From a virus (Duplodnaviria > Caudoviricetes), in IMG/VR virus record IMGVR_UViG_3300042544_002864, positions 1,784-65,783 of that record: a stretch of DNA of 64,000 nt. One strand, written 5' to 3'. Numbering within the stretch: position 1 is the stretch's first letter; each line of letters starts with the position of its first letter. Positions 2,767 through 61,192 of this stretch are shown here, piece by piece. Below the pieces are notes generated by a model. That model made no database searches. It was not told the origin of the DNA and saw only the letters and a program-made list of their open reading frames with translations. The position numbers and the translations under genes were made by a program.

Positions 2767-3477
2767 TTAAGACATCCAGATAAAGTAACCTTGAAATTCA
2801 TCTTTGAAGTTAAAACCATTATCTAAACAATCACTTATTAGTTTTTTGGCTACTTCATCAGTTAAAATGTTTTCAATTCTATTGGTAAATGCTTCTTTTT
2901 TAATTAAATCTGATAATTCAATAGAAATATGCTCAGATAATTCAATTTTCTTTTTAGAAAGTTCCTCATATAAATGATCAAAGACATTTGTTAAGATAAC
3001 ATCCATTTCTTCTTTAGAATAAATAACGACTTCAACATCTTGATTTTCCCAATCATTTATTTTGAATATGTGTTTATCAGCATCAACTATATCAATGTCA
3101 CCTAAGTTAGTATCAAAGTGGTCAGCTAAAACTTTTTCCATTTTAGCAGTTGCTTTTTCAATTCCTTTATAAAGACATTGCTTCATTGAATGAATTTTGA
3201 ACTCTTCTGATTCAAACATCTTGAATGATTCAAATGTTATAACACCATCTTTTTCCATATGGTTTCTATCTTCGATTATATCTTTCAATATCACTTCAGC
3301 ACCTTTAACATCTTTTAGTTTATTTCTTTCTAGAAATTTATTAAATCTTTCTGATCCTGGTTGTAAATATCTTTTAAGTGAAGAAGGTCTTATCTTCCAC
3401 TTATCAATATAATCATCTACCAAACCATTAATAACTTGGTAGTATCTATTAGCATCTTCTCTAGTATTAATTGACAT
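2767..3477 (-). CDS. Hypothetical protein (internal ITFESFKMFESEE motif)
   Basis: 236-aa ORF overlapping upstream gene end; internal copy of the tag-like motif. Confidence 0.6.
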   Translation of the reverse strand: MSINTREDANRYYQVINGLVDDYIDKWKIRPSSLKRYLQPGSERFNKFLERNKLKDVKGAEVILKDIIEDRNHMEKDGVITFESFKMFESEEFKIHSMKQCLYKGIEKATAKMEKVLADHFDTNLGDIDIVDADKHIFKINDWENQDVEVVIYSKEEMDVILTNVFDHLYEELSKKKIELSEHISIELSDLIKKEAFTNRIENILTDEVAKKLISDCLDNGFNFKDEFQGYFIWMS

Positions 3478-3778
3478 CTTTCTTACCTCTTAAATTGTAT
3501 AGATCGATAAATTCATCAGATTCTTTACTTCTTTCAGATTCCATATCTTCTATTTCATCTTCATCTAATCTTGACTTTTGTAAGTCATAATATTCATCTT
3601 CACTTAAATCTTCTATTTCATCAGAATCACAGAATTTGCATTTATCACAAGTCTCATTTAATTCTTTCCATAAAGCATTACACTCATCACAACTATAGTA
3701 GTTTGTTAGAACATTTTTTGATGTTACCGGAATCGTTTGATTGAAATCAAAAGTTTCAAATTTTCTAATGTGTTTCAT
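3467..3778 (-). CDS. Acidic Zn-ribbon protein with capsid-targeting-like N-terminus
   Basis: MKHIRKFETF start; CxxC...CxxCxxC; TAATATATA upstream at 3784-3792. Confidence 0.65.
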   Translation of the reverse strand: MKHIRKFETFDFNQTIPVTSKNVLTNYYSCDECNALWKELNETCDKCKFCDSDEIEDLSEDEYYDLQKSRLDEDEIEDMESERSKESDEFIDLYNLRGKKDVN

Positions 3779-3893
3779 ATATCTATATATTAAAAATATT
3801 TTTACCTTTTTTAAAACAAGTTGATGGTTCTTTTATATATAGTATCTAAATACACAAACAAACAATTTACAAAAAAAACAAAAACAAACAATT

Positions 3894-4082
3894 ATGAAAA
3901 AAACCGCTTTTATGCTTTTTGCATCAGCAACAATTTTCTTAGCTTCTTGTACAACTGGAGCTGAAAAAACAGAAACAACTACTACAGATTCTACAGCAGT
4001 GGCAGTAGATTCTACAGCTACACCTTGTGACTCTTGTGCAACTTTATCAGTTGATACAACTTCTACATCAGTAGCTAAGTAA
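3894..4082 (+). CDS. Small lipoprotein (Bacteroidota-style, D-S/T-rich)
   Basis: MKK + hydrophobic stretch + lipobox LASC; repeated DST/DSC/DTT; followed by terminator. Confidence 0.75.
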   Translation: MKKTAFMLFASATIFLASCTTGAEKTETTTTDSTAVAVDSTATPCDSCATLSVDTTSTSVAK

Positions 4083-4101
4083 TCAAAATGATACTATAAA
4101 T

Positions 4102-4129
4102 AAAAGAGACTTTTTTAGTCTCTTTTTTT
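4102..4129 (+). terminator. Intrinsic terminator
   Basis: aaaagagact-ttttt-agtctctttttt hairpin. Confidence 0.75.
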
Positions 4130-4156
4130 ATTTTAAAACATATAAGTAAATATACA

Positions 4157-4873
4157 ATGATAAAATGTCAAGATAATTTAGAATTTATGAAATCAATTGA
4201 AGATAATTCAATTGACCTTATTTATTGCGATATTTTATATGGCACTGGTAGAAAATTCTCTGACTATCAAGATCTTAAACCAATTAAATCAGATATAGAA
4301 GAACACTATATACCTCGTCTAAAAGAAATGCACCGAATACTTAAAAAAACAGGCACAATCTACTTACAAATGGATACTAAAATCAATCATTGGATTCGAT
4401 GTATTATGGATGATATATTTGGATATGATAATATGAGAAATGAAATTGTTTGGTTTTATAATACTGCACCAAGAAAGAAATCAGATTTTGGTAAAAGACA
4501 TGATATAATCTATCGTTATTCTAAAACCGATAACTATAAATTCAACCCAGTTAGAGAACCCTATTCTTTATCAGCACCAAGAGGATATGAGAAAGAAAAG
4601 TATTACCACCCAGAAGGTAAAGTAATTGGTGATGTTTGGCAAATGAATATTTTAGGTCAAAATGATAAAAAAGAAAGAGTTGGTTATGATACCCAAAAAC
4701 CAAAGTCTTTAATAGAAAGAATTATAATATCATCATCTGATGAAGGAGACCTAGTCGGTGATTTCTACTTAGGTAGCGGCACAACAGCTGTTGTTTGTAA
4801 AGAGTTAAATAGAAATTTTATTGGATGTGATATAAATCCTAAAGCTATCGAAATAACTAAGTCAAGGTTATAA
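4157..4873 (+). CDS. DNA N6-adenine/N4-cytosine methyltransferase (beta class), atypical motif IV
   Basis: SIDLIYCDILY (motif IV position), TQKP..L.ERII..SS.EGDLV.DF.LGSGTT (motif I), GCDIN. Confidence 0.85.
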   Translation: MIKCQDNLEFMKSIEDNSIDLIYCDILYGTGRKFSDYQDLKPIKSDIEEHYIPRLKEMHRILKKTGTIYLQMDTKINHWIRCIMDDIFGYDNMRNEIVWFYNTAPRKKSDFGKRHDIIYRYSKTDNYKFNPVREPYSLSAPRGYEKEKYYHPEGKVIGDVWQMNILGQNDKKERVGYDTQKPKSLIERIIISSSDEGDLVGDFYLGSGTTAVVCKELNRNFIGCDINPKAIEITKSRL

Positions 4874-5877: not shown

Positions 5878-7032
5878 ATGCTATTCAGATTTAATAAATT
5901 TATTAACGAAGAAGTAAGAATAGAAAAAATGGACGAGCCTACATTAATTTCTTTAAAGAAGAACTTAATGTTTAGACTTGGCGAGTATCGTACTTATATC
6001 TTAGCAAACATTGAATATAATTTCACAACTAATAAGGTAGAGTATAAAAACTTCGATAAAATCGATATTCCTGTTATAATAAGAGAATTATCAAATGAAT
6101 TCACCACTGAAGTAATTGAGGACCTTAATATAGATTCTTTCTTAAGAAAGCTAAATCAAATAATTGAATTAAGAAAAAGAAACACTAAGAGAAAAGTTAG
6201 AGAAGCTTTTGATGAGTATTACAAAACAATTGAACAAAGAATAACAAATATCAATAAATCTGGAGAAGCTCCAGATCCTTTTGACCAAATATCAGGAGAA
6301 GGTTCTATATTACCAAGAAGACAATATGAGTCAGAAAAATATCAAATTCAAATAGAGTTACTGAAACTACAAGAGTGGGTTATCAAAAATAAGAAAAAAG
6401 TAGCAATTGTATTTGAAGGTAGAGATGCTGCTGGTAAAGGTTCAACAATTAAAAGATTTACAGAATACCTAAATCCAAGTGGATTTAAGATTGTTGCTTT
6501 AGGAATTCCAACAGATGAAGAAAAGCAAAATTGGTTTGGTAGATATGAAAAATACTTACCAAAAGAAGGTGAAATAGTATTCTTTGATAGAAGTTGGTAT
6601 AATAGAGCGGTTGTTGAACCGGCTATGGGTTATTGTACGGAAGACCAATATGAAAACTTCATGAATAATGTAATTGATTGGGAAGAAAGTCTAATAAAAA
6701 GTGGAACAATTTTAATAAAGTTCTGGTTCTCTATTACACAAGAAAAACAAATAAAAAGATTCGATTTAAGAAAAGAAAGTCCTTTGAAATATTGGAAGTT
6801 CTCTCCAAACGATGCTAAAGTATTAGACAAATGGGAGATAATCGGAAACTATAAAAATCAAATGTTTTCCAAAACATCAAGTAGATTATCACCTTGGGTT
6901 ATTATAAATTCTAATGATAAAAAAATTGGAAGACTTAATGCAATGAGATATGTTATCTCGGAAATAAACTATAAAGATAAAAATCCAAAAATTGGAAACT
7001 ACTACCCAGAAGTGGTAAATGTTTTAAAATAA
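5878..7032 (+). CDS. ppk2: Polyphosphate kinase 2 with N-terminal extension and capsid-targeting-like leader
   Basis: Walker A FEGRDAAGKGSTIK, Walker B FDRSWYNR, lid PLKYWKFSPND; N-terminus MLFRFNKFINEE. Confidence 0.9.
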   Translation: MLFRFNKFINEEVRIEKMDEPTLISLKKNLMFRLGEYRTYILANIEYNFTTNKVEYKNFDKIDIPVIIRELSNEFTTEVIEDLNIDSFLRKLNQIIELRKRNTKRKVREAFDEYYKTIEQRITNINKSGEAPDPFDQISGEGSILPRRQYESEKYQIQIELLKLQEWVIKNKKKVAIVFEGRDAAGKGSTIKRFTEYLNPSGFKIVALGIPTDEEKQNWFGRYEKYLPKEGEIVFFDRSWYNRAVVEPAMGYCTEDQYENFMNNVIDWEESLIKSGTILIKFWFSITQEKQIKRFDLRKESPLKYWKFSPNDAKVLDKWEIIGNYKNQMFSKTSSRLSPWVIINSNDKKIGRLNAMRYVISEINYKDKNPKIGNYYPEVVNVLK

Positions 7033-7062: not shown

Positions 7063-7803
7063 ATGAATATTAAGAAATTTGAAAATTATATGTCTAGAGA
7101 AGAAATGTGTCGATCTCTTTGTAGATGTGGATATAATATGAGTGAACTTGAAGAGTGTTCAAATCAAGAACTCGAAGAAATGTGTAAAAACGCAGAAAAA
7201 AGTGATGAGGAAGAAATGACTCAAGAAGCAAAAGGTGAAAAATGGATTAAAGATGCCATTAAGAAACCAGGATCTTTAAGAAAATCATTAAATAAAAAAG
7301 AAGGTGAGAAAATCACTAAAAAAGAAATAGATACTGAGTTACAAGCTCTTAAAGGTAAAGATAAAGACCCTAAGAAAAAAGGAGTACAAGGATTAAAAGG
7401 TAAAGATTTATCTAAATTCAGAAAACTAAACTTGGCTAGAACTCTTAAATCTATGAAAGAAAACCAAGAAACTCAAAATTATATGTTCTTTGGTAATTTA
7501 CAAACAATCAAAAGATTAGTCGATAAGATGTTAGAGATGGATGAGTCAGAAGTTGATGCAATCTTATCAAATGGACACAACTGGGCTTTGGATCACATCG
7601 CGACTTCTAAAGATGATGTTGAAGAAGTATTTAACTTCTTAGCAGGTCGTCATGATGAACCAAGTGATAACATAGCTGATTCAGAAGAAAATCACTTATT
7701 AGGTGGTCCGGAATCATCACACACGGTACATGACAATCATATGAGAAATGTTGATATTGAAGGACATCAAGAAAGTATCAAAAGTTTTAAAAATTTCAAA
7801 TAG
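7063..7803 (+). CDS. Putative internal head protein (acidic/basic mosaic)
   Basis: MNIKKFENY start, C-terminal IKSFKNFK; basic block KWIKDAIKKPGSLRKSL...LARTLK; TAATATATA 7037-7045. Confidence 0.55.
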   Translation: MNIKKFENYMSREEMCRSLCRCGYNMSELEECSNQELEEMCKNAEKSDEEEMTQEAKGEKWIKDAIKKPGSLRKSLNKKEGEKITKKEIDTELQALKGKDKDPKKKGVQGLKGKDLSKFRKLNLARTLKSMKENQETQNYMFFGNLQTIKRLVDKMLEMDESEVDAILSNGHNWALDHIATSKDDVEEVFNFLAGRHDEPSDNIADSEENHLLGGPESSHTVHDNHMRNVDIEGHQESIKSFKNFK

Positions 7804-9453: not shown

Positions 9454-10686
9454 CTACTTCTTTTTCATATACTTTTTATTAATCTTAGTTTCGATTCCTT
9501 TCTTCATTAATACTTCATGTCCAAGTGAACAATCTGTACATAAGGTTGCGTCTTTGTGCTCACATTTAATGTCACCTTCACCTTTACAAGTAACACATTT
9601 ACCCGAATCGGTATCTCCGGTTCCATCACAATCATCACAATCATATCTCCCGTCACTATATTTACAATCATCACAATCATCACATACACCATCACAATTT
9701 TGACATCTATCACCATCACCAGAAACCGAATGTAGAAAGTAAGAATCGATATCGGATAAGTTAGAAAGTACTTTCTTTTTATCATCTAAGAAACACATAG
9801 TATCTATAAATGGATAGTAAGTATAATCACCATCTAATTTAACGGTAGCTTCACCAAATACATCAGATCCTTTATAAGTAAAATGAATATTATCCTCTAA
9901 GTAACTATTCATTTTTTTCTTTAACATCCATCCTTTTTCATCAGCATACATTTTAAATTTGATAACATCTGAATCACGATTAGTATAAACTCTATCCATA
10001 AAGTATTTAGCCTCACAAGGAGAATCTTTTAGTTTCCATACAATCGCTCTACCATGTACCTTATTTTCTTCATCTAAAAGAACTAGTAGTTTAACCTTTG
10101 ATGGATTTTCAGTATAAATTTTAAATGTTTTTTTAGACTCTTCAGACATACAAGATCCACCTAAACTACCACTTGAACTATAATATCTATCACTGTTATA
10201 ATATTTTGCGATATCATTTCCATCAACTAATTCAAATTTTAATTTAGTATTTGATTTAGTGGCTTTGAAATGGTTAACAAATTCTTCAACATCTTTATCT
10301 TTAAATTCAATGTGTGTAAATGGAAGTAAATACCTGACGATCTTACCTATTTTAACATCACCTCGACCTTTAGTTGTATATGGTAATGATGGATCCTCAT
10401 CAGAATCCCAATCAGATGGTATTCTATTTTGTGGAATAAAAGATAACATATCATCTTTATCAACTAAGTCAAAATAGTTTTGTTTTATATCCCTATCTGA
10501 AATATATCTTTCATCTTCTATTAAGTCTAAAATACCTTGAGCTATTTCACCTGTTTTTCCTTTTACTTTTGCAATTTCTTTAAACTTCATCATGAAATCT
10601 GTAGAGCCATAGATATAAGCATCCATTACTGAATATAACTGAGATATTAACTTTTTTACTAAAAAACTATTATACTTTTTAATCAT
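9454..10686 (-). CDS. Conserved phage protein (SCM/GRA.VW/MDRVY/YP.DT family) with C-terminal CxxCxGxG zinc-finger repeats
   Basis: Likely start MIKKYNSF at 10686 right after TAATATATA (10692-10700); paralog of 24479..26350. Confidence 0.65.
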   Translation of the reverse strand: MIKKYNSFLVKKLISQLYSVMDAYIYGSTDFMMKFKEIAKVKGKTGEIAQGILDLIEDERYISDRDIKQNYFDLVDKDDMLSFIPQNRIPSDWDSDEDPSLPYTTKGRGDVKIGKIVRYLLPFTHIEFKDKDVEEFVNHFKATKSNTKLKFELVDGNDIAKYYNSDRYYSSSGSLGGSCMSEESKKTFKIYTENPSKVKLLVLLDEENKVHGRAIVWKLKDSPCEAKYFMDRVYTNRDSDVIKFKMYADEKGWMLKKKMNSYLEDNIHFTYKGSDVFGEATVKLDGDYTYYPFIDTMCFLDDKKKVLSNLSDIDSYFLHSVSGDGDRCQNCDGVCDDCDDCKYSDGRYDCDDCDGTGDTDSGKCVTCKGEGDIKCEHKDATLCTDCSLGHEVLMKKGIETKINKKYMKKK

Positions 10687-13708: not shown

Positions 13709-14107
13709 TTACATCAATCCACGAGTGATTCTAAAGTCTTTTTTATCATCTTCCTCTTGTTCTATGAAATCAGTATTCTTCAATTGTTCAACTAAATTAA
13801 AAATTTGCTTACAAACCTCAGTTGATACTTCTATATACTTATCATTCATTTTCATTTCACCACTATATCCACCACCGCCAGGTCCCATACGAAAACCATA
13901 CTTTACATGAAATTTAAATCCATCCACTATAAATGAATATCCACGAACCTCTGATATCAATAATTTAGCAATACCTTCTAAATTACCTCTTAATGATTTT
14001 AATTCTCTAAGAACTTCCAAAGCAATATCTTCGTCTTTCCAAAAAGGGTTAAATTTACGAACCGGTTTAGGAATTAAAAATGCTTCAAATTTTTTTAAGT
14101 GATTCAT
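13709..14107 (-). CDS. Hypothetical protein with capsid-targeting-like N-terminus
   Basis: MNHLKKFEAF start. Confidence 0.65.
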   Translation of the reverse strand: MNHLKKFEAFLIPKPVRKFNPFWKDEDIALEVLRELKSLRGNLEGIAKLLISEVRGYSFIVDGFKFHVKYGFRMGPGGGGYSGEMKMNDKYIEVSTEVCKQIFNLVEQLKNTDFIEQEEDDKKDFRITRGLM

Positions 14108-14808
14108 TATTTCTTTTTCTTTTTTCTTGCTTTTGCGGCTTTTGCTTTAGTCCATAAATCAGCATCTGCTTTTCTAGCACCACCGGCACCAGTGATAAAT
14201 GAGTTTACTCTACCCATTCCCCATTGATGTTGAGCAACACCCGGTCTGTGACCAGCATTCCAAGCTTGCATTCCCTTAGAGAAAACTTTTCTTAAAATAC
14301 CCATTGGTATTCCAGAAGCTTTAGCTTTCTTTTTAAGTGAGACACTCACACCGGACTTTTTAGATTCATCTAAACCTTCCAATTCATCATCACCATCTAA
14401 TCCAATAGCATAATTCAGTTCATCAAGAATAGCATCTGTAGGAATTTCATCATCATCTTCATTATAGAATTTTCCCTCAGTTCCATATTGAGAATAACTA
14501 ACTAATGGAGTTCCTTCTTCAACTATTTCGTTATATAGTGAGATAATATCGTTTGGATCAACTTCTTCACCAAGTTCCATTATTACACCAGTATAATGAG
14601 ATGGAATATAAATTTTATTTTCAGATTCAAAGCTTTCATTCTTACTTAAAGAAGAAATTATTTGATTAACTTTATCTAAACTAAAGTCTAATTCAATAGC
14701 AATTTGTTCAGCTGTTAGACCTTCTTCTAATAAGTCTTTCACATCTTCCATATCAGCATGTGTGAAGTCTTCAAAAGTGTATGATTCAAATGTTTTTAAG
14801 TATTTCAT
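14107..14808 (-). CDS. Tagged acidic protein with basic C-terminal DUF5824-like module
   Basis: MKYLKTFESY start; after LDES: SLKKKAKASGIPMGILRKVFSKGMQAW..GHRPG...HQWGMGRVNSF. Confidence 0.6.
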   Translation of the reverse strand: MKYLKTFESYTFEDFTHADMEDVKDLLEEGLTAEQIAIELDFSLDKVNQIISSLSKNESFESENKIYIPSHYTGVIMELGEEVDPNDIISLYNEIVEEGTPLVSYSQYGTEGKFYNEDDDEIPTDAILDELNYAIGLDGDDELEGLDESKKSGVSVSLKKKAKASGIPMGILRKVFSKGMQAWNAGHRPGVAQHQWGMGRVNSFITGAGGARKADADLWTKAKAAKARKKKKK

Positions 14809-14809: not shown

Positions 14810-15244
14810 TTAATGTTTTAATTTTTCTAATCTTTTTATTACCTCATCGATATTTTGGTTCCAATCTTTTGATAATACTGATTTACCAAACTCATTAAGT
14901 TCACCAACACTATCTCTAATACCTTCTAGCTCTGAAATTATATCATCACACTCATCACAGATATAAGTATCTTTAATATCTTCTCTTTCGTAACTATCAA
15001 AAAATTCTGGGTAATTTTCAACAAAAACAGCGCCCGCACTTTCTTCTTCACCTGGTTTTGTCTTTACAATATATCCATTATCATAAATTTCCCCGGTTAC
15101 TTCGTATCCAAGTTTTTTTGCTAAATCTTTTACCGTACCGTATCCTATATCAGCGTTTCTATTTGCAAATACAACTACTTCACCTTTCTTATGAGAAGGA
15201 AATCTTGATACTAATTCTTCATTAAATTTTCTTAGGTGTTTCAT
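14810..15244 (-). CDS. Hypothetical protein with capsid-targeting-like N-terminus
   Basis: MKHLRKFNEE start. Confidence 0.65.
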   Translation of the reverse strand: MKHLRKFNEELVSRFPSHKKGEVVVFANRNADIGYGTVKDLAKKLGYEVTGEIYDNGYIVKTKPGEEESAGAVFVENYPEFFDSYEREDIKDTYICDECDDIISELEGIRDSVGELNEFGKSVLSKDWNQNIDEVIKRLEKLKH

Positions 15245-15246: not shown

Positions 15247-15804
15247 TTAATCTTTTCCCCCAAACATTTTTTGATAAGCTTTTGTAGCAGCAGATTTTTT
15301 AGTTTTAACTCTTTTACCTTCACCACCTTTACCACCGGTATAGTCAGCATCCCAATCTTTTTTGTACTCTTTTTTACCCCTGAATGTGTCAATTTCTTTT
15401 TTCATTTTACCTGGATTTTTAGTTAGATATTTTCCAGGAATTTTACGACCTTTATATTTTTGAGCCTTAACTCTTTCAGAAATTCCTAGTATACCTTGAA
15501 TGTCTTTTTCTATCATATCTAACCCTTCGTCCATTGACTCAACATTAGTTTGGAAATCAATAACATCACCGGCAGTTTTAGTGATATATAAATCGTCTAT
15601 ATCAAATTCATATTTAACAGACAATTCACCAGTTGAAAAACTAACAGATAACTGATGGTCTTTTTTATTCTCCCATTCATATATCATGTTTTGACCATCT
15701 GATACACTATCAACCAAATCTTTAAGTTCCTGCATTTTAGCGTCTATTAGGCTATCCGGATTATTTACGAATTCTCTAATAAATTGATTCCATTTTTTTA
15801 TCAT
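15247..15804 (-). CDS. Tagged protein, acidic N-half and basic C-terminal module
   Basis: Likely start MIKKWNQFIRE at 15804 after TAATATATA (15810-15818). Confidence 0.6.
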   Translation of the reverse strand: MIKKWNQFIREFVNNPDSLIDAKMQELKDLVDSVSDGQNMIYEWENKKDHQLSVSFSTGELSVKYEFDIDDLYITKTAGDVIDFQTNVESMDEGLDMIEKDIQGILGISERVKAQKYKGRKIPGKYLTKNPGKMKKEIDTFRGKKEYKKDWDADYTGGKGGEGKRVKTKKSAATKAYQKMFGGKD

Positions 15805-17129: not shown

Positions 17130-18557
17130 ATGACTAAAGATGAAAAAATCAAACAAATAGAAATTCTTAAAAAGAAAGCAGCTGAAATTAAAAAAGAAGC
17201 TGATTACTATAACGCACTACAACTTGCTTTGAAATTAGTATTGAATGGTTCATATGGAGCCTTCGCTACATCTTACTTTATTCTTTATAATAATCACGTA
17301 GCTGGTACTATAACTGCTCAAGGTAGAGACTTGACTAAGACAATGGATAAAGTGAATGAGGATTATTGGTACAATCAGTGGCAAGATGACTTTGAATTAC
17401 ACTTTAAACTTGGAGTGAAAGATGTTACAAAGATAACAAAATCAGAACCTGTTAGTATTTATGCTGACACCGATTCTCTTTTTGTTTCTTTCAAACCAGC
17501 AATTGACCATTGTACTTGGAAAGATTTAATATTCAATAATGATTATTTAAGTTCTATTAACGATAAATTCATCATATTAACAAATGATGAAACTAAAACA
17601 AACAATCCTAATTGTTTAGGAGTTGCTACTAATCTATCTGAATTAGGAGAGTTGATTAAAAATGATTATGAGTTAATATTAATTGATGGTAATTATATTA
17701 AAGACAGAGGCCTGAATAAGATGATAGACTCTGGTGTTTTCACATCAGAAATTAGATGGAATTGGAATAGTGAACAAGACTTTATTCAAGGACTTGACCA
17801 TTTTAGATATGGTGGATATTTCAAAAAGTGTTTAGAAGATTATGCTGCTTCTTTCGGTGTTGAAAATAAAGAAGATTTTGAGTTAGAAAGAATTTCGGAA
17901 TCAATGATTAACATTGCTAAGAAAAAGTATATTTGTCACATCACTTATGAAGATGGTATTCCATTTGAAAGGTTAAATTATATTTACCCAAAAGGAGTTG
18001 AACTTGTTAGATCATCCACACCAGCATTTGCTCGTGATAAGATTGTGCATATCGTTAAATATCTTTTCTCACATCCGGATACTTTCAATATAAAAGACTT
18101 ATTGAAATTAGTTAAAGGTCTAAGAAAAGAATTTGAACTAGCTGACATTGATGATATATGTATGCAATCATCCGTTTCTAAATATGAGATTAAGGTTTTA
18201 GATGATTCGAAACTACCTCTTCAGTTTGTTAGTGGTGCTCACTTCGCAGTTAAGTCAGCAGCTCATCATAATTATCTATTATTAAAGAGTAAAGATTATC
18301 AACAAAAGTATGAATTTATAAAATCTGGTAATAAAATTAAATACTATTGTTGTAAGGATAAATCTATAACGGATATGTTCGCTTACACAAGAGGATCTTA
18401 CCCTATTGAATTTGCACCAGAGATAGATTATGATGAACAATTTGCTAAGTCTATCCTTTCTCCAATAAATTCAATTATTGAACCATTAGGAATGCCAGAG
18501 ATTACTAAAAGGTTATCAGTTGTTATGGATATTTTTGGTGGTAAAGGAGGCTTCTAA
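17130..18557 (+). CDS. Family B DNA polymerase, C-terminal part only (split PolB)
   Basis: Motif B QLALKLVLNGSYG, motif C IYADTDSLF, KKKY, KGVELVRSSTP; no exonuclease domain or motif A. Confidence 0.88.
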   Translation: MTKDEKIKQIEILKKKAAEIKKEADYYNALQLALKLVLNGSYGAFATSYFILYNNHVAGTITAQGRDLTKTMDKVNEDYWYNQWQDDFELHFKLGVKDVTKITKSEPVSIYADTDSLFVSFKPAIDHCTWKDLIFNNDYLSSINDKFIILTNDETKTNNPNCLGVATNLSELGELIKNDYELILIDGNYIKDRGLNKMIDSGVFTSEIRWNWNSEQDFIQGLDHFRYGGYFKKCLEDYAASFGVENKEDFELERISESMINIAKKKYICHITYEDGIPFERLNYIYPKGVELVRSSTPAFARDKIVHIVKYLFSHPDTFNIKDLLKLVKGLRKEFELADIDDICMQSSVSKYEIKVLDDSKLPLQFVSGAHFAVKSAAHHNYLLLKSKDYQQKYEFIKSGNKIKYYCCKDKSITDMFAYTRGSYPIEFAPEIDYDEQFAKSILSPINSIIEPLGMPEITKRLSVVMDIFGGKGGF

Positions 18558-19231
18558 AGTAGACCAATACTACCATATACACTTATCCAAGAATTAGGAT
18601 TAGATGGGTCTATTAAATGTGTATTGTTTACCTGTGTTTTACTAACAGGAAGATATTTTTTAATGTAAATTTTACCAGGAATGACATCATTTACAAGATA
18701 AAGTGGAACCATAATTCCATTCGATCTAAGTTCTTTTGTGAATTTCAAAGCCGCTTCAAAAATTGGATCTGTAGCTAAATCTGCCATTTTTAATCCCTCT
18801 GTTCTAAACATAACAGCTTTTGGTCGAGCGTATCTTATTTCAACATATAATCTATCTGAAGTGTCTATTAAATTATATCCAGCTAGAGAAGGTAGCTGAA
18901 TAGGTGCGTTATTACCTTGAAATTTGTAAATAGTATTTGTAGAGGTTTCTTGAAATAATAAATCACAATTAAGTGCGTTACATATATCAAGTAACTTTGT
19001 TCTTTGCCAAGTACCAGAAGCTAACATTGGATTTCCTAAAAATTTAGAGTCAAAGGTATACTTATCTTCAATAATACCATTTATAAGATTATTAACTATT
19101 GATATATTATCTATATCAATCATAGCACAATTCGCTGGTAAATTAGGACTTCTATGATTATTAGAGAAAACATTACCACCAACATGTATTCTATTTTGTG
19201 CTTCAAATATTGAAAATTTAGTTATTAACAT
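18554..19231 (-). CDS. Possible PD-(D/E)XK-like protein with tag-like N-terminus
   Basis: MLITKFSIFEA; IDID...IIEDK spacing like restriction-fold nucleases; TAATATATA 19236-19244. Confidence 0.4.
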   Translation of the reverse strand: MLITKFSIFEAQNRIHVGGNVFSNNHRSPNLPANCAMIDIDNISIVNNLINGIIEDKYTFDSKFLGNPMLASGTWQRTKLLDICNALNCDLLFQETSTNTIYKFQGNNAPIQLPSLAGYNLIDTSDRLYVEIRYARPKAVMFRTEGLKMADLATDPIFEAALKFTKELRSNGIMVPLYLVNDVIPGKIYIKKYLPVSKTQVNNTHLIDPSNPNSWISVYGSIGLL

Positions 19232-36406: not shown

Positions 36407-36415
36407 TTTATTTTA

Positions 36416-38836: not shown

Positions 38837-38872
38837 GATTTATATATTTTATATCATGTTCTTCAGTGAGAA

Positions 38873-40483: not shown

Positions 40484-40603
40484 CTTATTATTATATATAA
40501 AATAAAGACATATGTTTAAATATTGAAAAATTTGAGGTTTTTTTGAGGTTTTTTATGGAGGGAGATTAAAGAAGTGTATATATAATAAAAAATAAGTTAA
40601 ATC

Positions 40604-40966: not shown

Positions 40967-40983
40967 TCAGAATAAAAGCTTAT

Positions 40984-41017
40984 AAAAAAACTCACTTAAA
41001 ATTAAGTGAGTTTTTTT
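40984..41017. terminator. Bidirectional intrinsic terminator
   Basis: aaaaaaactcactta-aaat-taagtgagttttttt. Confidence 0.8.
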
Positions 41018-41020
41018 ATG

Positions 41021-42766: not shown

Positions 42767-42776
42767 ATAATATTAT

Positions 42777-43265: not shown

Positions 43266-43279
43266 AATATTTTTATTTT

Positions 43280-45779: not shown

Positions 45780-47174
45780 ATGAAGAAGTATTCAGATAAA
45801 TTTCTTAATCAGTCAAATAAACTTAAATTTGCTAAAATTGGGTTTGAATTTGAGTTTTATATGAAAGACCTGTCTTATTATAAGACATTAGAACTATTAA
45901 ACATTGAACTAGCTCCTGTAAAAGTTTGGGGGTTTAGACAATATCACTCAGATTTCAAACCAGATGAGAAAAATTTCAAAATAGAACCTGATTTATCAGG
46001 AGGTTCTAACATGGTCGAGTTAGTAACTGGACCACTTGATTATTATGATGCTAAATACTATTTAGTTAAAATAATAAAATTTATACAAACTTACGGATAT
46101 ACAAATGAGAAATCATCTGTACATTTTAACTTATCATTTAATAATGAAGATAAAAACTTAAATGATTTAAATATATTAAAGTTAATATTAAATACAGATG
46201 AGGATGAGATTTATAGAATTTTTCCATCTAGAAAAAGTAATGTATATGCTAAATCTATAAAGAAAATTATTCCATATAAAGAATATGACTTCTTTAATAT
46301 ACCTATTAGTGTTGTTAAAAACAATCTAAGATTACCAAGTGATAAATACTATGGTATTAATTTCTTAAATATCAATAATGATAAAGAAAGTCAAAGACTT
46401 GAATTTAGATATGTCGGTGGAAAGGATTACGAAAGTAATATAGGCAATCTAATCTATTTTATGGATAGATTTATAATAACGGTATTTGATTCTATTGATA
46501 CTGACTTTAATTCGGAAGATGTTAACAAGTTAGAAGAATACTTAGAAAAAAATATCTCACTATTTAAGAACTTTTCCAAATATGATAACTTTATAGTTGA
46601 TTTTCCTACTATTCAATTACAAATTGACCAAGTTGGTAACTATGATTTAATATCAGCATACTATCCGAATATTTATACTAAATTATATAACTTAATAGAC
46701 GCAACAAGTGGTCTAAAAGAATGTATTGTAAATTATGTAACATCTACACAAACAATGGAAGTTGTTGATGCTGAAATTAAAAACACATCCACTATTAAAG
46801 GATATGATTTAATCAATTGTAGATGTGAAGGTATCTATGAGAATTGTTTCTTCATAGGATGTGAAGTAGATAATGCTCAAATGACTAAATCTAAATTACA
46901 ACAATCTTCAGTTGTTAACTCAAAGGTTTTAAATTGTAAAGTTGAATCTACTGACTTAACAAATTGTTACTTTATGGATGGTTATTTAAATGGTGATATG
47001 ATGGGTGGTGTATTTAGATCGGGTAGATTAGGACCTTATGCAACATTAGATTCAGAGGTTAAAGTTGTTACTGATAATGAAAATTTCTTTGATACTAAAT
47101 TTGATACCGAGACAAAAGGAGATTCAAAAGGAAATATAAAAGGATATGGGAAAACTCCATTTGGTAAGAAATAA
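45780..47174 (+). CDS. Putative amidoligase (COOH-NH2 ligase type 2) with C-terminal beta-helix-like repeats
   Basis: KIGFEFEF, EPDLS, VELVTGP, SSVHFNLS, KYYGINF, LEFRY; TAATATATA 45766-45774. Confidence 0.7.
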   Translation: MKKYSDKFLNQSNKLKFAKIGFEFEFYMKDLSYYKTLELLNIELAPVKVWGFRQYHSDFKPDEKNFKIEPDLSGGSNMVELVTGPLDYYDAKYYLVKIIKFIQTYGYTNEKSSVHFNLSFNNEDKNLNDLNILKLILNTDEDEIYRIFPSRKSNVYAKSIKKIIPYKEYDFFNIPISVVKNNLRLPSDKYYGINFLNINNDKESQRLEFRYVGGKDYESNIGNLIYFMDRFIITVFDSIDTDFNSEDVNKLEEYLEKNISLFKNFSKYDNFIVDFPTIQLQIDQVGNYDLISAYYPNIYTKLYNLIDATSGLKECIVNYVTSTQTMEVVDAEIKNTSTIKGYDLINCRCEGIYENCFFIGCEVDNAQMTKSKLQQSSVVNSKVLNCKVESTDLTNCYFMDGYLNGDMMGGVFRSGRLGPYATLDSEVKVVTDNENFFDTKFDTETKGDSKGNIKGYGKTPFGKK

Positions 47175-47617
47175 TGAAGTATCTAAAAAAGTTTGAAAGT
47201 AGTGATGATAAACTTCAATTTGGAGTAACACCTGAAGATATCAAATATCTATTTACTGATATATCTGATAATGGTTGGAGAGTAGATGTTAGATTTTTAA
47301 AGAAACTAATTGACTTCAAAAAACATAGTGGTGATGTTAATTTTGAACATGATTCAGATTTAAAACTAGGATTAATTCCTTATATACAAGTTTCAATTAG
47401 TAAACCAACTCCATTTGAAGATAGATTTAAACGTTCGAAATGGCAAGAATCTCAAGAGTTACAATCATTTATAGAATCAAATGAATTTAAAGAGATAATT
47501 GAAGTTGCTTCTTTAAGATTAGATGAATCTGAACTTTATATACAAAAACAATCGTATGTAAATAATGCGTTTAATATATTAATATATAGAAAAACAGACG
47601 AAAATTATATAAAATAA
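47174..47617 (+). CDS. Tagged hypothetical protein
   Basis: MKYLKKFESS start. Confidence 0.65.
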   Translation: MKYLKKFESSDDKLQFGVTPEDIKYLFTDISDNGWRVDVRFLKKLIDFKKHSGDVNFEHDSDLKLGLIPYIQVSISKPTPFEDRFKRSKWQESQELQSFIESNEFKEIIEVASLRLDESELYIQKQSYVNNAFNILIYRKTDENYIK

Positions 47618-47618: not shown

Positions 47619-49469
47619 ATGATAAAAAAATATCAAAACTTCCTGAACGAAGAAGTAGGTCTTAAAAACATTTCTAAGATAGCGAAACTTTACAAAACTG
47701 CTGAAATTTATTTCCACAAAGACTTAGATGGTGTTACATCAGCTATCGCTATGAAAGAATTCTTAAAGAATTATTATCAAATAGAAACGGTTGATTGTCA
47801 TATTATTCAATATGGTGGATTGGAATACGCTGTTAAAAATCATAAAGAAGGAAATCTTTGTGTCTTAGTTGACTTTGCTCATGGTAAACCAATGTTTCAT
47901 ATTGCAACTGACCACCATGATAAACAATCAGGTGCTGAAGATACTCAATCTACTTATTTCAAACACACTCGTTCAAATGTTGAAACTATTTCAGGTGAGA
48001 TTTCATATTCTGATATTTTCACTCACGAAGATATTGAATTAATTAAAACAGTTGACTCTGCTAACTTTTTAGCAAATGATATCAAACCAGAAGATGTTCA
48101 AAATTCTATCTTCTCTACTAATAAAAATCTTTCTCCTTCTAAAAATAGATTTATGATGGGTTTTGTAGTTAATAGATTATTATTAGCTTATAAAAATAAA
48201 AGAATTACAACTAAATCATTAGATGGTAAAAGAAACCATATCAATAGAAATATACTTGAGTGTTTAACTTTAGATTCTACTGGTAGTTTATATTCAATGT
48301 TTAATAACCTTAAAAATTATATCAACAATGCTAAAACTACTGATAAGTTAGGAAGATTAGCAACTCCAGAAGAAATCAAAGCTAACTTAAGTGACTATAT
48401 TGATAGAATGAAAAACTATAGTTTCATTGAGGATCCTAGTACGGGAGATGTTTCCGAATACGATCCAACTAACTGGAGACATAAAAAAATGTTAGATACT
48501 GGAGCTCAAATTGGTAAAGGTGTTCACTTTGATGAGGAATATAACATAGTTACTCAATATGGTGGTGGTTCAATGATTAAAGCTGGTTCTTATGACAGAT
48601 ATGTTGTTTTCAAAAACAACCCTAAAGCAGATTTCAATTGTATTGCTTGGCCAATGGGTTTATTACAAGTTTCTTGTAACCCATTTAAGGAAAAAGCGTT
48701 AAAGGAAATTAACTTAGGTGAAATTGCTAAAGAAGTTTTAGCTAAACACGAGTCGATTCTTAAAAGATTCTTCGTTTCTTTAGAGTCGATTAAAAAAGAA
48801 TTTGAAACATCTCAAGATTGGAAAGCAATGGCTAAAGCAGAAGGTGATGATTATGAAGGAGTAGGATTTAAATTTAGTGATTTAGAAGCTTTCTACAAAG
48901 ATTGTTTATTTGAGAAAAAAGATAATAATGTTGTTAATGTTGATATTAATGATCCAAAACTAAGAAGTAGTATGAATACTTTATTCACTGACCTTACACC
49001 AGATCAAAAATTCTACCTAAGTAGTATTAAAATTCCAGCTTGGGAACTTATCATTAGAAACTCAGGTGGACATCCATCAATTACTAACATTACAGGTTTG
49101 AATTTCTTAAAATATAATAAAGCGGCTCTTAAAATAGCGTATAAAACAGAAAAGTATGTTGATGTTCTTAAAACATTAGCTAAAGATTTTGTAAATGTTC
49201 TTAAAACTAAAATTGATATTGCTAAAGAAGGTGGTCAAGTTGAGTATGATACTAAAGGAGTTGAGTTACTTGGACAAGATACAAATGAGAATTTTGATTA
49301 TCAAATTGTTGATAAAGTAAGTGGTCAACCCGTTTCAGTTACAAAGGATCAATTCTTAAAAGCTGGAGCATCTAAAGGAATGAAAACTGATAGAAAAAGT
49401 TTGATGAGTATTGATATGGTGAATAAGAAAGTAGTTGCTAAGTTTGAAAATTTTAATATTAAAAAATAA
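47619..49469 (+). CDS. DHH-family phosphoesterase with capsid-targeting-like N-terminus
   Basis: MIKKYQNFLNEE; FHKDLDGVTSA, LVDFAH, TDHHD, C-terminal SGGH. Confidence 0.75.
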   Translation: MIKKYQNFLNEEVGLKNISKIAKLYKTAEIYFHKDLDGVTSAIAMKEFLKNYYQIETVDCHIIQYGGLEYAVKNHKEGNLCVLVDFAHGKPMFHIATDHHDKQSGAEDTQSTYFKHTRSNVETISGEISYSDIFTHEDIELIKTVDSANFLANDIKPEDVQNSIFSTNKNLSPSKNRFMMGFVVNRLLLAYKNKRITTKSLDGKRNHINRNILECLTLDSTGSLYSMFNNLKNYINNAKTTDKLGRLATPEEIKANLSDYIDRMKNYSFIEDPSTGDVSEYDPTNWRHKKMLDTGAQIGKGVHFDEEYNIVTQYGGGSMIKAGSYDRYVVFKNNPKADFNCIAWPMGLLQVSCNPFKEKALKEINLGEIAKEVLAKHESILKRFFVSLESIKKEFETSQDWKAMAKAEGDDYEGVGFKFSDLEAFYKDCLFEKKDNNVVNVDINDPKLRSSMNTLFTDLTPDQKFYLSSIKIPAWELIIRNSGGHPSITNITGLNFLKYNKAALKIAYKTEKYVDVLKTLAKDFVNVLKTKIDIAKEGGQVEYDTKGVELLGQDTNENFDYQIVDKVSGQPVSVTKDQFLKAGASKGMKTDRKSLMSIDMVNKKVVAKFENFNIKK

Positions 49470-50530: not shown

Positions 50531-51118
50531 ATGAATCATATAAAACTATTTGAAAATTTTACCAATCAGCCTTTAATCGATCTTGAGAATCAATTAATGA
50601 AATACTCAATTCCTATTCAATATTGGGGAACTGGAAATGCAAAAACAATCGAACATCTATTAGATGAGATAGATAATGAAGAATGTATAATTAAAGATGA
50701 AGGTGGGTATTTAGTTCGATATATCGAGTTTGTTGGAATTAGAATGTTATACAAAGACAAAGATAATAACACTTGGTTGTTAAAAGAAGATAGACAAGAG
50801 TTCAAAGATGGTAGAATTAGAAGAAGAGATATGCAATCATCAGTTTCAGAGAAAATGAAATCTGGAGAAAATCCATTAGTTTCAGCAGTAAGAGGAATTG
50901 AAGAAGAACTAGGTGTTAAAATCGAATCATCTCAATTAAGAAAGTTAAGACCAATGTATTATAATGGTGGTTCACAATCATATCCAGGATTAAAAACAAA
51001 ATATATCGGACATCAATTCACTTGTTATCTAACACCTGAGCAATTTGTGGAAAATGGTTATGTCGAAATACAAAAGGATAAGAGTACATTCTTTAAGTGG
51101 GTAAAACGAGATAATTAA
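50531..51118 (+). CDS. Nudix-like protein with capsid-targeting-like N-terminus
   Basis: MNHIKLFENF; SEKMKSGENPLVSAVRGIEEELGV is a variant Nudix box. Confidence 0.6.
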   Translation: MNHIKLFENFTNQPLIDLENQLMKYSIPIQYWGTGNAKTIEHLLDEIDNEECIIKDEGGYLVRYIEFVGIRMLYKDKDNNTWLLKEDRQEFKDGRIRRRDMQSSVSEKMKSGENPLVSAVRGIEEELGVKIESSQLRKLRPMYYNGGSQSYPGLKTKYIGHQFTCYLTPEQFVENGYVEIQKDKSTFFKWVKRDN

Positions 51119-58598: not shown

Positions 58599-59033
58599 AT
58601 GAAACATTTAAGAAATTACAAACTATTTGAATCCACAATATTTAATAATCAACTTGAGGATATTTTACTTGAGTTATCAGACTTAGGGTATACTTGGAAA
58701 ATTGAAACAAAAACTTGGTCACAAGGTCAATTTATGTTGGAACTTACTATTTCAAATACGTCATCTGTTATCAGTAGACTTTCACATGTAAATAAATTTG
58801 GTAAGAGAGATAGTAGTTTAAATGTTGATAACTTTAAGGAGATGTCTGATTGTTTGTTAAGAATAAAAGATTATATGATTTCATCTGGATATGAACCGAG
58901 AATATATCGTCACAAACATTTTTATGAATTATTAGAAGCAAGTGATTGGGAAAAACTTGAGAAAGATCCACAACATTATATGATGTCTCCTAATATTGAT
59001 ATTTCTTTTTTTGATGAAAGTTATACGGTATAA
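58599..59033 (+). CDS. Tagged hypothetical protein
   Basis: MKHLRNYKLFES; TAATATATA 58583-58591; I.DILLEL.D.G core shared with 47174..47617. Confidence 0.65.
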   Translation: MKHLRNYKLFESTIFNNQLEDILLELSDLGYTWKIETKTWSQGQFMLELTISNTSSVISRLSHVNKFGKRDSSLNVDNFKEMSDCLLRIKDYMISSGYEPRIYRHKHFYELLEASDWEKLEKDPQHYMMSPNIDISFFDESYTV

Positions 59034-59060: not shown

Positions 59061-59711
59061 ATGAAACATCTTAAACAATTCAATGAATCTTCCTCTGAAG
59101 ATATTAAACAAGACATCTTAGATAATTTTGCTTATATATCTGATAAGTTTGGAGAACCTGCTATAGGTTCACATAGTTATGGAAAAGGAACAAAATGGAA
59201 TTTATCTTGGGATATTAGATTAGACCTTTCTGTTTTACAAGAAGCTACTAAACTTATTCAAAAGTTAAAAGATATTGTAGAAGAAATTGATGATGTCCTT
59301 GCAGCTTCTGATAGATTAGAAAACTATAATATTAATATGAGTTTAACTAATAGTCTTAGAATTGAATTGGTTCCTAAAGATACTGGTGATAACACCTTTA
59401 AATTTATTAAAGGATATGAAAGTAGAGCTCTTTATGTTAGAATAAATGAAGTGGAAAGATTTTTTAATTCAAGAGGACTTAGAGTAGTTAAGTGGGATAA
59501 TGAATCTAGTTATGACGAAGGTAATCAAACTAATGATTTAGAAATAGTTTTAAATAAAAGAGATAATCAAATTATGGCTGAATTTCATGATTTGGTTATG
59601 GCTGAATTGAATCTAATTGATGATAGAGAATATGTAGTGAGAACACAAGGTGATAGTGTTGTTATATATCCAAATGAAGAAAAATCTTATATAGAAGTTA
59701 CTACTACTTAA
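59061..59711 (+). CDS. Tagged hypothetical protein
   Basis: MKHLKQFNES start; TATATA upstream. Confidence 0.65.
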   Translation: MKHLKQFNESSSEDIKQDILDNFAYISDKFGEPAIGSHSYGKGTKWNLSWDIRLDLSVLQEATKLIQKLKDIVEEIDDVLAASDRLENYNINMSLTNSLRIELVPKDTGDNTFKFIKGYESRALYVRINEVERFFNSRGLRVVKWDNESSYDEGNQTNDLEIVLNKRDNQIMAEFHDLVMAELNLIDDREYVVRTQGDSVVIYPNEEKSYIEVTTT

Positions 59712-59898
59712 CGTAAGATTTATAAATTTCAATAGTATCATTTTGGTAACCTTCAAATAGATTTTTCCTATCTAAAGTTGGTCGACTGACACCTAATTGA
59801 GTTCCAGAATAAAAAGTAAATAGCTTGCCTAGATTGACGAATATTTCAATCCTACCTGTAAGTTTCCAACGTACACAAATTGCTGTTTGACTTCTCAT
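59704..59898 (-). CDS. Small hypothetical protein
   Basis: Likely start MRSQTAI at 59898 downstream of metallophosphoesterase. Confidence 0.4.
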   Translation of the reverse strand: MRSQTAICVRWKLTGRIEIFVNLGKLFTFYSGTQLGVSRPTLDRKNLFEGYQNDTIEIYKSYVK

Positions 59899-59926
59899 TT
59901 CTATTAAGTTATAAAGAAAGAGAGAG

Positions 59927-60679
59927 TTAGTCTCTCTCTTCCCAAAGTTCACCAACTCCTAAAAGTCGATGTTTAGTTCCATACATATTCATTACATCAC
60001 TTTTATGAAAGTGTCCATAGTAAGCAAACTCAATATCATTATTCATTTTAACAATATTAAAAGCTTGTGTAACTTGATTTCGTTCAAAAAGTAAATCAGT
60101 TCGTAATTCGGTATCACCAGTATCTCGTATAATACCTTCTACAAATGCTCCTAAGCTAAAAGTATTGTCAGGTGTACAATAATCTGGACAAGTATGAGTT
60201 ACCATAATATTGATATCTCGTAAGTCTTTAATTTTATCTACGTCTAAAACAAACGGCTCATCAGGCCACCAACTTTCAATACCTAAAGTAGTATTTTCAA
60301 ATATGCCTAATTTTTGTTTTTTTGTGTAACGCCATTCACGGTCAACACTAACAGCTCCACCAATACAAAGAATATTTTTATCACCTAAGTTAAGTACGGT
60401 ATAATCTGGAACTAAATGAATGTTGGTAAAACCAAATGGATCATTATCAAAGTGAGGTTTGTAGTCATGATTACCACGGATAGCCCATACATGAACATTG
60501 TTATTAACAAGTTGTGGATGATACATTTCAAGCATACGTTTTTCTTTTTCAACCGTATTAAATCCAACTCCAAAGTCTCCAACTTGAATTATATGTGCAT
60601 CTTTAATACCATACATCTTTACATATTGATGTATAACACTAAAATTTCCGTGTATGTCTCCTAAATAAATGATTCTCAT
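59927..60679 (-). CDS. Calcineurin-like metallophosphoesterase
   Basis: GDIHG, VGDFG, RGNHD, VTH, GHFH; likely start MRIIYLGD. Confidence 0.85.
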   Translation of the reverse strand: MRIIYLGDIHGNFSVIHQYVKMYGIKDAHIIQVGDFGVGFNTVEKEKRMLEMYHPQLVNNNVHVWAIRGNHDYKPHFDNDPFGFTNIHLVPDYTVLNLGDKNILCIGGAVSVDREWRYTKKQKLGIFENTTLGIESWWPDEPFVLDVDKIKDLRDINIMVTHTCPDYCTPDNTFSLGAFVEGIIRDTGDTELRTDLLFERNQVTQAFNIVKMNNDIEFAYYGHFHKSDVMNMYGTKHRLLGVGELWEERD

Positions 60680-60683
60680 AATA

Positions 60684-60714
60684 CAAATATACAAATAAAA
60701 TTCAGATAACCAAA
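60684..60714 (-). promoter_or_regulatory. Bacteroidota sigmaA-type promoter (-33 TTTG, 19 nt, -7 TATATTTG)
   Basis: Minus strand TTTG (60711-60714), 19-nt spacer, TATATTTG (60684-60691). Confidence 0.7.
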
Positions 60715-60799
60715 GTTTATAGTTAATATAATCATGGTGTTACATGATATTAAAACTTTTGTATAATATATTATTATATTATTTTATATATAAGTTGTT

Positions 60800-61192
60800 A
60801 TGAAAAAAATAAAAAACTTTGAGGCTTTTAACGAGGGATTGGGAAAAGTCGGAAATTACCTGAATGATTTAATCAAAAAAGGTGGTAAAATGGCATCTGA
60901 TACTTGGGAAGCAACCAAAAGAGAAAGTCAAGAAACTAAATTAGCTGTTGGTATTTTATCAAAAATGCTAAAAGGGGAAGAAGTTTCTGATAAAGAAAAA
61001 AGTTTTTTAAAAGAACAATCAAAAGATTTAGCTCGAATAATTCCTTTAGTTGCGGTCTCTGGAATACCTATTCCAATTCCCTTAACCCCTTTGTTAATAA
61101 TGCTTGGGAAGAAATATGGATTTGACTTTCTACCTAAAGATCATCGTGGATTATTAAAAGATGATGAAAAAACTCCTCCAGTAGAAGAATAA
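60800..61192 (+). CDS. Tagged protein with LETM1-like segment
   Basis: MKKIKNFEAFNEG; EK.FLKEQSKDLARIIPL...PIPLTPLL..L.KK....LP. Confidence 0.5.
   Translation: MKKIKNFEAFNEGLGKVGNYLNDLIKKGGKMASDTWEATKRESQETKLAVGILSKMLKGEEVSDKEKSFLKEQSKDLARIIPLVAVSGIPIPIPLTPLLIMLGKKYGFDFLPKDHRGLLKDDEKTPPVEE

Follow-up and report, generated by a model that had tools for sequence, protein, structure and literature searches.

Why do 22 proteins encoded on one fragment of a phage genome, nearly all of them unrelated to one another, begin with almost the same short peptide? The question was raised by a 64-kb stretch of DNA (the window, positions 1,784 to 65,783 of the virus record IMGVR_UViG_3300042544_002864; Duplodnaviria, Caudoviricetes), which makes up nearly all of a 65,783-base record that lacks end repeats and is estimated to be 19% complete. 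The GC content of the window is ~29%. A first-pass annotation had claimed that ~24 proteins carry this N-terminal tag and had interpreted it as an address label that loads them into the phage head, in the manner of the capsid-targeting sequence (CTS) of phage T4. The 22 N-termini that it listed were all present at their positions and on their strands, although three of them are weak. Our analysis suggested that the shared N-terminus is probably a T4-type capsid-targeting propeptide that has been hugely expanded, and the head-loading interpretation was partly supported.

Most comparisons were made with LR745206.1 (the relative), a complete uncultured phage genome of 634,780 bp, whose 74-148-kb region is largely syntenic with the window and whose baseplate and other proteins are 30-85% identical to those of the window. 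Its open reading frames (ORFs) were taken from a simple ATG-only call (907 ORFs of at least 50 aa). Megablast of window positions 30000-50000 against phage records gave two short matches only. The four largest complete phage genomes described in the huge-phage survey of Al-Shayeb et al. (2020) measure 634, 636, 642, and 735 kb, and genomes of at least 634 kb are assigned there to the Mahaphage clade, with Bacteroidetes as predicted hosts (PMC7162821).

A portable N-terminal peptide

The 22 N-termini can be aligned to a single motif, M-(x-x)-[LI]-[KR]-x-[FYW]-x-x-[FY/E]..E, which has a long form, MK[HY][LI][KR]xFExF/Y, and a short form, MIKK[YWF]xxF[ILV]xE, which equals the long form without two residues. 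The specificity of the motif was evaluated using a leave-one-out hidden Markov model (HMM) built from the 22 N-termini, with a threshold of at least 10 bits for all counts. The threshold was reached by 18 of the 74 window genes, and roughly one gene in four on the fragment carries the tag. Among the controls, the threshold was reached by none of the 324 internal-Met 16-mers and by 3 of the 1480 shuffled N-termini. Scores of at least 9.7 bits were obtained for 19 of the 22 listed tags, and the weak ones are those of the genes starting at 19231 (4.2 bits), 29077 (3.6 bits), and 26350 (2.2 bits). Two genes outside the listed set also gave a weak tag score (45780, 7.1 bits; 8525, 5.0 bits). In the relative, the window-only HMM recognized 119 of 907 ORF N-termini, compared with 4 of 2973 internal-Met windows and 10 of 9070 shuffles. 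This number is an undercount, because two tagged orthologs were missed (one has a GTG start and the start of the other was called too far upstream). A scan against shuffled N-termini had been proposed by the first-pass annotation as a check, and in both the window and the relative it placed the tag far above chance. In addition, a scan of IMG/VR with a back-translated tag pattern returned at least 143 matching stretches as a raw count, and several contigs (L074-L077, L087-L089, L097-L100) held 3-6 matches each. Strong tag-like sequences, LKTFESFVS and IKKFESFDI, also lie inside two long ORFs of the relative with no Met before them (172579-174963, residue 374, and 23335-24192, residue 258, respectively); these could be internal joints or chance.

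The tag was absent from the DNA polymerase, helicase, NAMPT, NUDIX/NAD, dNK, methylase, and ClpP genes of the window, which agrees with the earlier claim that replication and NAD genes lack it. An annotated sample of untagged proteins of the relative included tRNA synthetases, a DnaB-like helicase, RNase H, a sigma factor, and ribosomal L7/L12.

The bodies behind the tag were compared by BLASTP after removal of the first 18 residues. A single related pair was found among the 22 proteins (9454-10686 and 24479-26350), and the claim that the bodies are unrelated held for the rest. When 141 tagged proteins were grouped in the same way, 124 BLAST groups were obtained, 110 of them singletons. A paralogous family with a shared N-terminal domain was not indicated, as similarity past residues 15-18 was absent in these 110 of 141 proteins. 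Synonymous codons vary among the window tags, and substitutions in the tag are conservative (F/Y/W, K/R, I/L). Moreover, codons 2-12 of the 119 tagged genes of the relative are used as in the gene bodies for K, F, E, H, N, I, R, and S, that is, for 8 of 10 amino acids; Leu TTA is enriched (71% vs. 51%, p 2e-4) and Tyr differs marginally (p 0.04). Together, the synonymous variation, body-like codon usage, and conservative substitutions indicated that selection acts on the peptide and not on the DNA.

Tag status is also stable between orthologs. The relative has an ortholog for 13 of the tagged window genes; this ortholog carries the tag in 12 cases (two after start correction) and is degenerate in the remaining one, while none of the orthologs of 37 untagged window genes is tagged. 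The tag stands at the start of 117 of the 120 closest homologs of the window polyphosphate kinase 2 (PPK2; 74-95% identity, counted by eye), and in 50 aligned homologs E11 and E12 are invariant and M1, F5, and F8 are conserved in at least 90%. In the family of the 230-aa protein encoded at 29778..30470, the tag is kept in ~115 of 120 homologs, down to 55% identity (counted by eye), and is followed by a variable K/E-rich linker with indels and then by the conserved body. AF2 (AlphaFold2) models placed the tag outside the fold in both proteins: the predicted local distance difference test score was below 50 for PPK2 residues 1-11 and for residues 1-13 of the 230-aa protein, whose body has a mean of 86.5. 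The tag is therefore real, strongly non-random, N-terminal, portable between unrelated bodies, and kept between orthologs.

Likeness to the T4 capsid-targeting sequence and to a scaffold repeat

According to a 2023 review (PMC9958956), foreign proteins are loaded into the T4 core by an N-terminal CTS of ~10 amino acids; the review also states that gp21 clips small peptides from N-termini and that gp23 loses 65 residues. When the 267 ORFs of T4 were scanned with the window-only HMM, the top four matches were gp61.1 and the internal proteins IPII (11.0 bits), IPIII (10.4 bits), and IPI (9.1 bits), whereas none of 2670 T4 shuffles reached 10 bits. The likeness to the T4 CTS suggested by the first-pass annotation was thus recovered by a model that had been built from window sequences only. 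The best T4 match, gp61.1 (NC_000866 18966-19130; 54 aa), is a hypothetical protein that starts MKTFKEFIKED and adjoins the primase gene.

The tag and the T4 CTS (MKTYQEFIAE in IPII and IPIII, also carried by IPI, and removed by gp21) are both N-terminal peptides of ~10 residues on unrelated bodies and have the pattern M-(K)-x-aromatic-x-x-F-(I/L)-x-E in common. Furthermore, relatives of the window phage possess a gp21-family protease and a Gp23-type capsid protein, as T4 does, and, judged by the promoter motif, expression of the tagged genes appears to be late, as for the T4 internal proteins. The systems differ in scale (T4 has three internal proteins, whereas the window has 19-22 tagged genes in its 64 kb and the 635-kb relative has at least 119), in the presence of the second, longer form MK[HY]LKxFExF, which lacks an I/L-x-E site, and in the candidate cargo, which in the window phage is acidic and includes enzymes. 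In addition, the scaffold of the clade has the motif as an 11-fold repeat, whereas a pattern scan of T4 gp22 found none. Encapsulin cargo-loading peptides are similar in being short and portable and in directing unrelated enzymes into an HK97-fold shell; unlike the tag, they are C-terminal, remain uncleaved, and bind the shell itself. SPN3US and phiKZ also package and eject many proteins (~50 in the SPN3US head), several of which are trimmed by an essential prohead protease (PMC7411985, PMC10052503); these phages belong to another clade, and no uniform short N-terminal address peptide is stated in the abstracts.

A head module with a putative gp21-type protease was identified in the relatives. 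Gp23-type capsid genes were detected above the cut-off in LR745206.1 and LR756502.1 (88.7 and 95.9 bits), and in both genomes an ORF of ~700 aa lies directly upstream, which in LR745206.1 encodes a 707-aa protease-scaffold. The N-terminal 253 residues of this protein match phrog_207 (E 2.6e-30), the same PHROG as T4 gp21 (E 7.8e-73); when the sequence of the protease domain was compared with PDB chains, no meaningful match was obtained (best E 0.14). Behind the protease domain are 11 tandem 14-residue repeats with YSEY[LIV]AE, comparable to YQEFIAE, the core of the T4 tag. Across the proteins of the relative, 94 instances of the pattern aromatic-x-x-aromatic-[ILVM]-x-E were counted, including 25 within the first 8 residues, 11 in the protease-scaffold, and 3 in an 83-aa protein. 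In T4 it marks IPII, IPIII, and gp61.1, and the same pattern is found in gp23 as FGSFLTE, ending at Glu65. The short form of the window tag fits aromatic-x-x-aromatic-[ILVM]-x-E exactly, and the long form has aromatic-E-x-aromatic instead. A likeness of the full tag to the scaffold repeats was rejected, as a position-specific scoring matrix weighted to one tag form (form A) and lacking the Met gave no match; the likeness is limited to aromatic-x-x-aromatic-[ILV]-x-E.

Two other genes of the relative are of note. The gene right after the capsid gene (202508-202897) is tagged (MIKKYKLFKEG) and encodes an NFACT-R RNA-binding domain (E 1.5e-16), and the 83-aa protein, encoded far from the head module (460435-460686), has three scaffold-type repeats (YEDYIAE, YSEYISE, YCDYLCE) at 14-residue spacing.

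The cultured distant relative Tenacibaculum phage PTm1 was also scanned. None of 304 ORFs in the first 220,000 of its 224,680 bases reached 10 bits, and no enriched pattern was seen among its N-termini; PTm1 therefore provides no proteomic cross-check. It has an S77 protease-scaffold fusion (45.7 bits) whose repeat differs (LSEGIE type), and it represents one case in which the tag and the YSEY[IL]AE repeat are both absent. No paper on such a tag expansion was found among open-access papers and preprints on capsid targeting, huge phages, and Mahaphage. The tag is most likely a T4-type label for head loading and cleavage, used on an unprecedented scale.

The close likeness to the T4 head-loading tag suggested that the head of this phage probably contains a protein cargo of unusual size and variety. 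In the mechanism that we propose, the tagged proteins would be made late, each with a free N-terminal peptide whose core, aromatic-x-x-aromatic-(I/L)-x-Glu, resembles the scaffold repeat unit and the recognition site of a gp21-family prohead protease. Given this resemblance, the tag would guide the protein into the scaffold core during prohead assembly. The prohead protease would then cut the tag off after the Glu, and the mature proteins would remain beside the DNA inside the head and may accompany it into the host. The candidate cargo would comprise several enzymes (PPK2, a zinc peptidase, and DHH-like and NUDIX-like proteins) together with many proteins that belong to no known family. The scaffold binding, cleavage, virion presence, and injection of the tagged proteins are steps that we only infer.

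Upstream motif and competing explanations

The claim that the tagged genes stand behind a shared upstream motif was supported by an enrichment of this motif. Within 40 nt upstream of the start, exact TAATATATA was found for 11 of the 22 tagged and 8 of the 52 untagged window genes (p 0.003), and the inclusion of one-base variants raised these numbers to 16 of 22 and 11 of 52 (p 5e-5). In the relative, the motif was found in the same 40-nt interval for 49 of the 119 tagged genes and for 63 of the 707 untagged ones (p 9e-17). A host-type TAnnTTTG box, the Bacteroidota -7 consensus, was seen before 1 of the 119 tagged genes of the relative and before 77 of the 707 untagged ones (p 7e-5), as well as before several untagged window genes. 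The portal, protease-scaffold, and capsid genes of the relative are preceded by TAATATATA or one-base variants, and on the basis of this promoter motif the tagged genes appear to be expressed late, together with the head proteins. The tag is not a general late-gene feature, since the baseplate hub, lysin-bearing, and other tail-type genes of the window (30493..45223, minus strand), several of which lie behind TAATATATA (starts 32976, 34931, and 45223), are untagged. The same stretch also contains an untagged helicase gene (38873-40483) and a single plus-strand ORF. The motif often starts 13-15 nt before the ATG (e.g., at 3778, 10686, 15804, 19231, 26350, 29077, 30470, 32976, and 45780); the relative has 67 motifs at this distance and a second group at 26-38 nt. 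By the geometry of T4 late promoters, a spacing of 13-15 nt would mean nearly leaderless mRNAs.

Several observations weigh against a role of the tag in head loading. An [ILVMF]-x-E site ending at residues 8-14 is present in 14 of the 22 window tags (a Glu at positions 8-14 in 21 of 22, as read by eye from the N-termini); the long form has K-F-E in place of I/L-x-E, and the tag of the gene starting at 10686 has no Glu within residues 1-16. The tagged proteins are acidic, with a median isoelectric point (pI) of 4.8 in the relative (untagged, 5.6; 96 of 119 tagged proteins below pI 6) and 5.1 in the window, whereas T4 IPII and IPIII are basic (pI 9.6); the packing of acidic proteins together with DNA would be a departure from the T4 model. 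Their number in the relative, at least 119 or ~13% of genes, far exceeds the ~50 proteins reported for the SPN3US head and is unprecedented. In addition, head genes were not found on the fragment (0 matches in a PF03420 search of the record), so that the protease and scaffold argument leans on a relative of 30-85% identity, in which, as in LR756502.1, the ~700-aa ORFs match Pfam Peptidase_S77 below the cut-off of 27 (20.1 and 22.7 bits). Finally, gp61.1 is annotated only as hypothetical and is not known to be packaged, and a tag-like N-terminus alone is therefore no proof of packaging.

The acidity and abundance of the tagged proteins would fit a cytoplasmic set better than a DNA-associated one, and the tag could accordingly be a sorting or control signal with another destination, such as a Clp degron or adaptor signal, a signal for another intracellular assembly, or a pro-piece that keeps enzymes inactive without packaging. 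A full ClpP gene (27958-28614; E 3.5e-66) lies among the tagged window genes, and the relative encodes the adaptor ClpS (L021:414-695). Nevertheless, we regard such a destination as unlikely: the likeness to the T4 capsid tag suffices to find the T4 internal proteins, the core is common to the head scaffold repeat of the relative, and ClpP itself is untagged and has no link to the motif.

The distance of the late motif, 13-14 nt before the ATG in many tagged genes, raises a different explanation, in which the conserved start would be an expression feature, namely a 5' coding context for translating leaderless or near-leaderless late mRNAs of a Bacteroidota phage. The enrichment of Leu TTA fits this explanation, as does the composition of the genes of the relative with the motif 12-16 nt from the ATG (43 tagged, 21 grey, and 32 untagged, vs. 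55 tagged among 714 motif-less genes); this enrichment, a further point against head loading, keeps the explanation alive with a small probability. However, 55 of the 119 tagged genes of the relative have no motif within 40 nt, the window genes starting at 14107, 14808, and 15244 lie inside an operon, and the baseplate genes starting at 32976 and 4904 have the same 13-15 nt spacing and no tag. The conservative substitutions and the body-like codon usage for eight amino acids also argue against it, and we consider it quite improbable. As the promoter motif and the tag often occur together before unrelated bodies, the tag might also be a functionless trace of history, a cassette of promoter and first codons copied by recombination in front of new genes. 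Such an origin is very improbable, because the peptide is conserved and the DNA is not, key positions are invariant or nearly so in the PPK2 homologs and are kept in ~115 of 120 homologs of the 230-aa family, and tag status is stable between orthologs. A T4-type capsid-targeting propeptide thus remains the explanation that we favor, with moderate confidence.

Tagged proteins, neighboring genes, and biological meaning

Among the tagged enzymes is PPK2 (5878..7032, plus strand; 384 aa), which starts MLFRFNKFINEE (9.7 bits; tag scores in this section are leave-one-out values) and contains a PPK2 domain at residues 147-369 with an equivalog-level match to TIGR03707 (308.5 bits). The 230-aa protein (29778..30470, minus strand), which starts MKHLKHFSIFES and is encoded just downstream of the baseplate hub gene, is a putative zinc metallopeptidase with the motif HEIGHCIDH; its best match in a fold search was 4l7a, a Bacteroides putative metallopeptidase (E 2.7e-4), followed by weaker M34-type matches. 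A 616-aa protein (47619..49469, plus strand; MIKKYQNFLNEE, 14.8 bits) gave a weak DHH phosphoesterase match (27.7 bits, cut-off 28.1), and its ortholog in the relative, at 67% identity, starts MISKYNQFINEE. It follows a 147-aa tagged protein (47174..47617, plus strand; MKYLKKFESS, 17.6 bits). A weak NUDIX match was found in a 195-aa protein (50531..51118, plus strand; MNHIKLFENF, 17.1 bits).

Four tagged genes form a run on the minus strand. It is headed by 15247..15804 (185 aa; MIKKWNQFIRE, 12.5 bits), which has TAATATATA 14 nt upstream and an ortholog with an identical tag, and continues with 14810..15244 (144 aa; MKHLRKFNEE, 15.4 bits), tagged also in the relative, and 14107..14808 (233 aa; MKYLKTFESY, 21.9 bits), with DUF5824 at residues 156-216. 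The last member, 13709..14107 (132 aa; MNHLKKFEAF, 19.8 bits), has no promoter motif of its own. The related pair also lies on the minus strand, each gene behind TAATATATA: 9454..10686 (410 aa; MIKKYNSF, 16.1 bits; motif 14 nt upstream) and its paralog 24479..26350 (623 aa; MRFLSNYLDFIFEA, weak at 2.2 bits; motif 13 nt upstream), which has tagged relatives in LR745206.1. Weak tags were likewise found at 18554..19231 (minus strand; 225 aa; MLITKFSIFEA, 4.2 bits), with TAATATATA 13 nt upstream and an I-F-E site ending at residue 10, and at 29077..29781 (plus strand; 234 aa; MKKFSKLILES, 3.6 bits), with TAATATATA 14 nt upstream.

The gene at 19878..20393 (plus strand) carries MKHLMRYEGY from 19890, four codons after the first ATG (13.1 bits), and its ortholog in the relative keeps the four-residue prefix before the tag. 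A DUF6576-like stretch of ~30 residues directly follows the tag here and in two more proteins, and is C-terminal in two untagged proteins. The five stretches lie at 19890-20393 and 998-1615 of the window and at L018:8646-9155, L018:13378-14001, and L023:12252-12671 of the relative; the untagged window protein (998-1615) has it C-terminally and has a membrane-protein look.

The other tagged genes on the minus strand are 3467..3778 (103 aa; MKHIRKFETF, 20.9 bits), with TAATATATA 14 nt before the ATG and a tagged ortholog in the relative, and 26393..27496 (367 aa; MVKKFGQFIKES, 10.4 bits), whose look-alike clusters are almost all viral. On the plus strand are 7063..7803 (246 aa; MNIKKFENY, 11.0 bits), 20432..20980 (182 aa; MIKRYNQFVKGVNEE, 12.2 bits), 23174..23737 (187 aa; MKYIKTFEGY, 17.1 bits), 58599..59033 (144 aa; MKHLRNYKLFES, 13.3 bits), 59061..59711 (216 aa; MKHLKQFNES, 17.5 bits), whose ortholog keeps the tag behind a GTG start, and 60800..61192 (130 aa; MKKIKNFEAFNEG, 10.3 bits).

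The recognizable candidate cargo of the window thus consists of PPK2, the putative metallopeptidase, the weak DHH and NUDIX matches, DUF5824, and DUF6576; most tagged proteins could not be assigned a function from PHROGs, NCBIfam, or one Atlas look-up. In the relative, a Pfam family was assigned to 9 of 118 tagged proteins, compared with 30 of 150 randomly chosen untagged proteins out of 682 (the 30 counted by eye; p 0.005), and ~92% of the tagged proteins have none. The corresponding depletion in the window was not significant (6 of 22 vs. 25 of 54, counted by eye; p 0.20). The families found on tagged proteins of the relative include NUDIX, GH108, peptidase M15, NFACT-R, HTH, and, twice, DUF6576, and one tagged protein combines a 2H/Acb1-like domain with an RNase T-like exonuclease. 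Membrane-like segments were predicted in 4 of 119 tagged and 53 of 707 untagged proteins of the relative.

Among the untagged neighbors, 11152-13671 encodes a NUDIX-containing protein, with a host-type TAnnTTTG box in front, and a NAMPT-type phosphoribosyltransferase of NAD salvage. A 475-aa ORF (17130-18557) matches only positions 140-237 of a 453-position model of family B DNA polymerases, with an HNH endonuclease gene (21427-21891) nearby; the polymerase may be split. A GAF-PAS-PAS histidine kinase of 717 aa, with TAATATATA in front, adjoins a response-regulator receiver protein of 143 aa at 61235-63824.

The proteins that giant phages carry into cells are largely unknown because these phages are uncultured. 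If the tag is a head address, it would provide a candidate cargo list from sequence alone, with 19-22 proteins here and at least 119 in the relative. By analogy with T4 IPI (PMC3012670), new anti-defense and takeover functions would be expected among the tagged proteins that lack a Pfam family. How the T4 tag finds the core has been called mysterious (PMC9958956), and the match between the tag and the scaffold repeat suggests a testable answer; such short portable tags could also serve to load foreign proteins into phage heads. More tentatively, the packaged and possibly injected proteome of this clade of huge Bacteroidota phages may be readable from their genomes as more than 100 mostly unknown, acidic, late proteins per genome (~13% of genes), whose address would mimic one scaffold repeat and be removed by a gp21-family protease. 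The head of these phages might then be a delivery vehicle for a large and fast-evolving arsenal of enzymes and likely anti-defense proteins.

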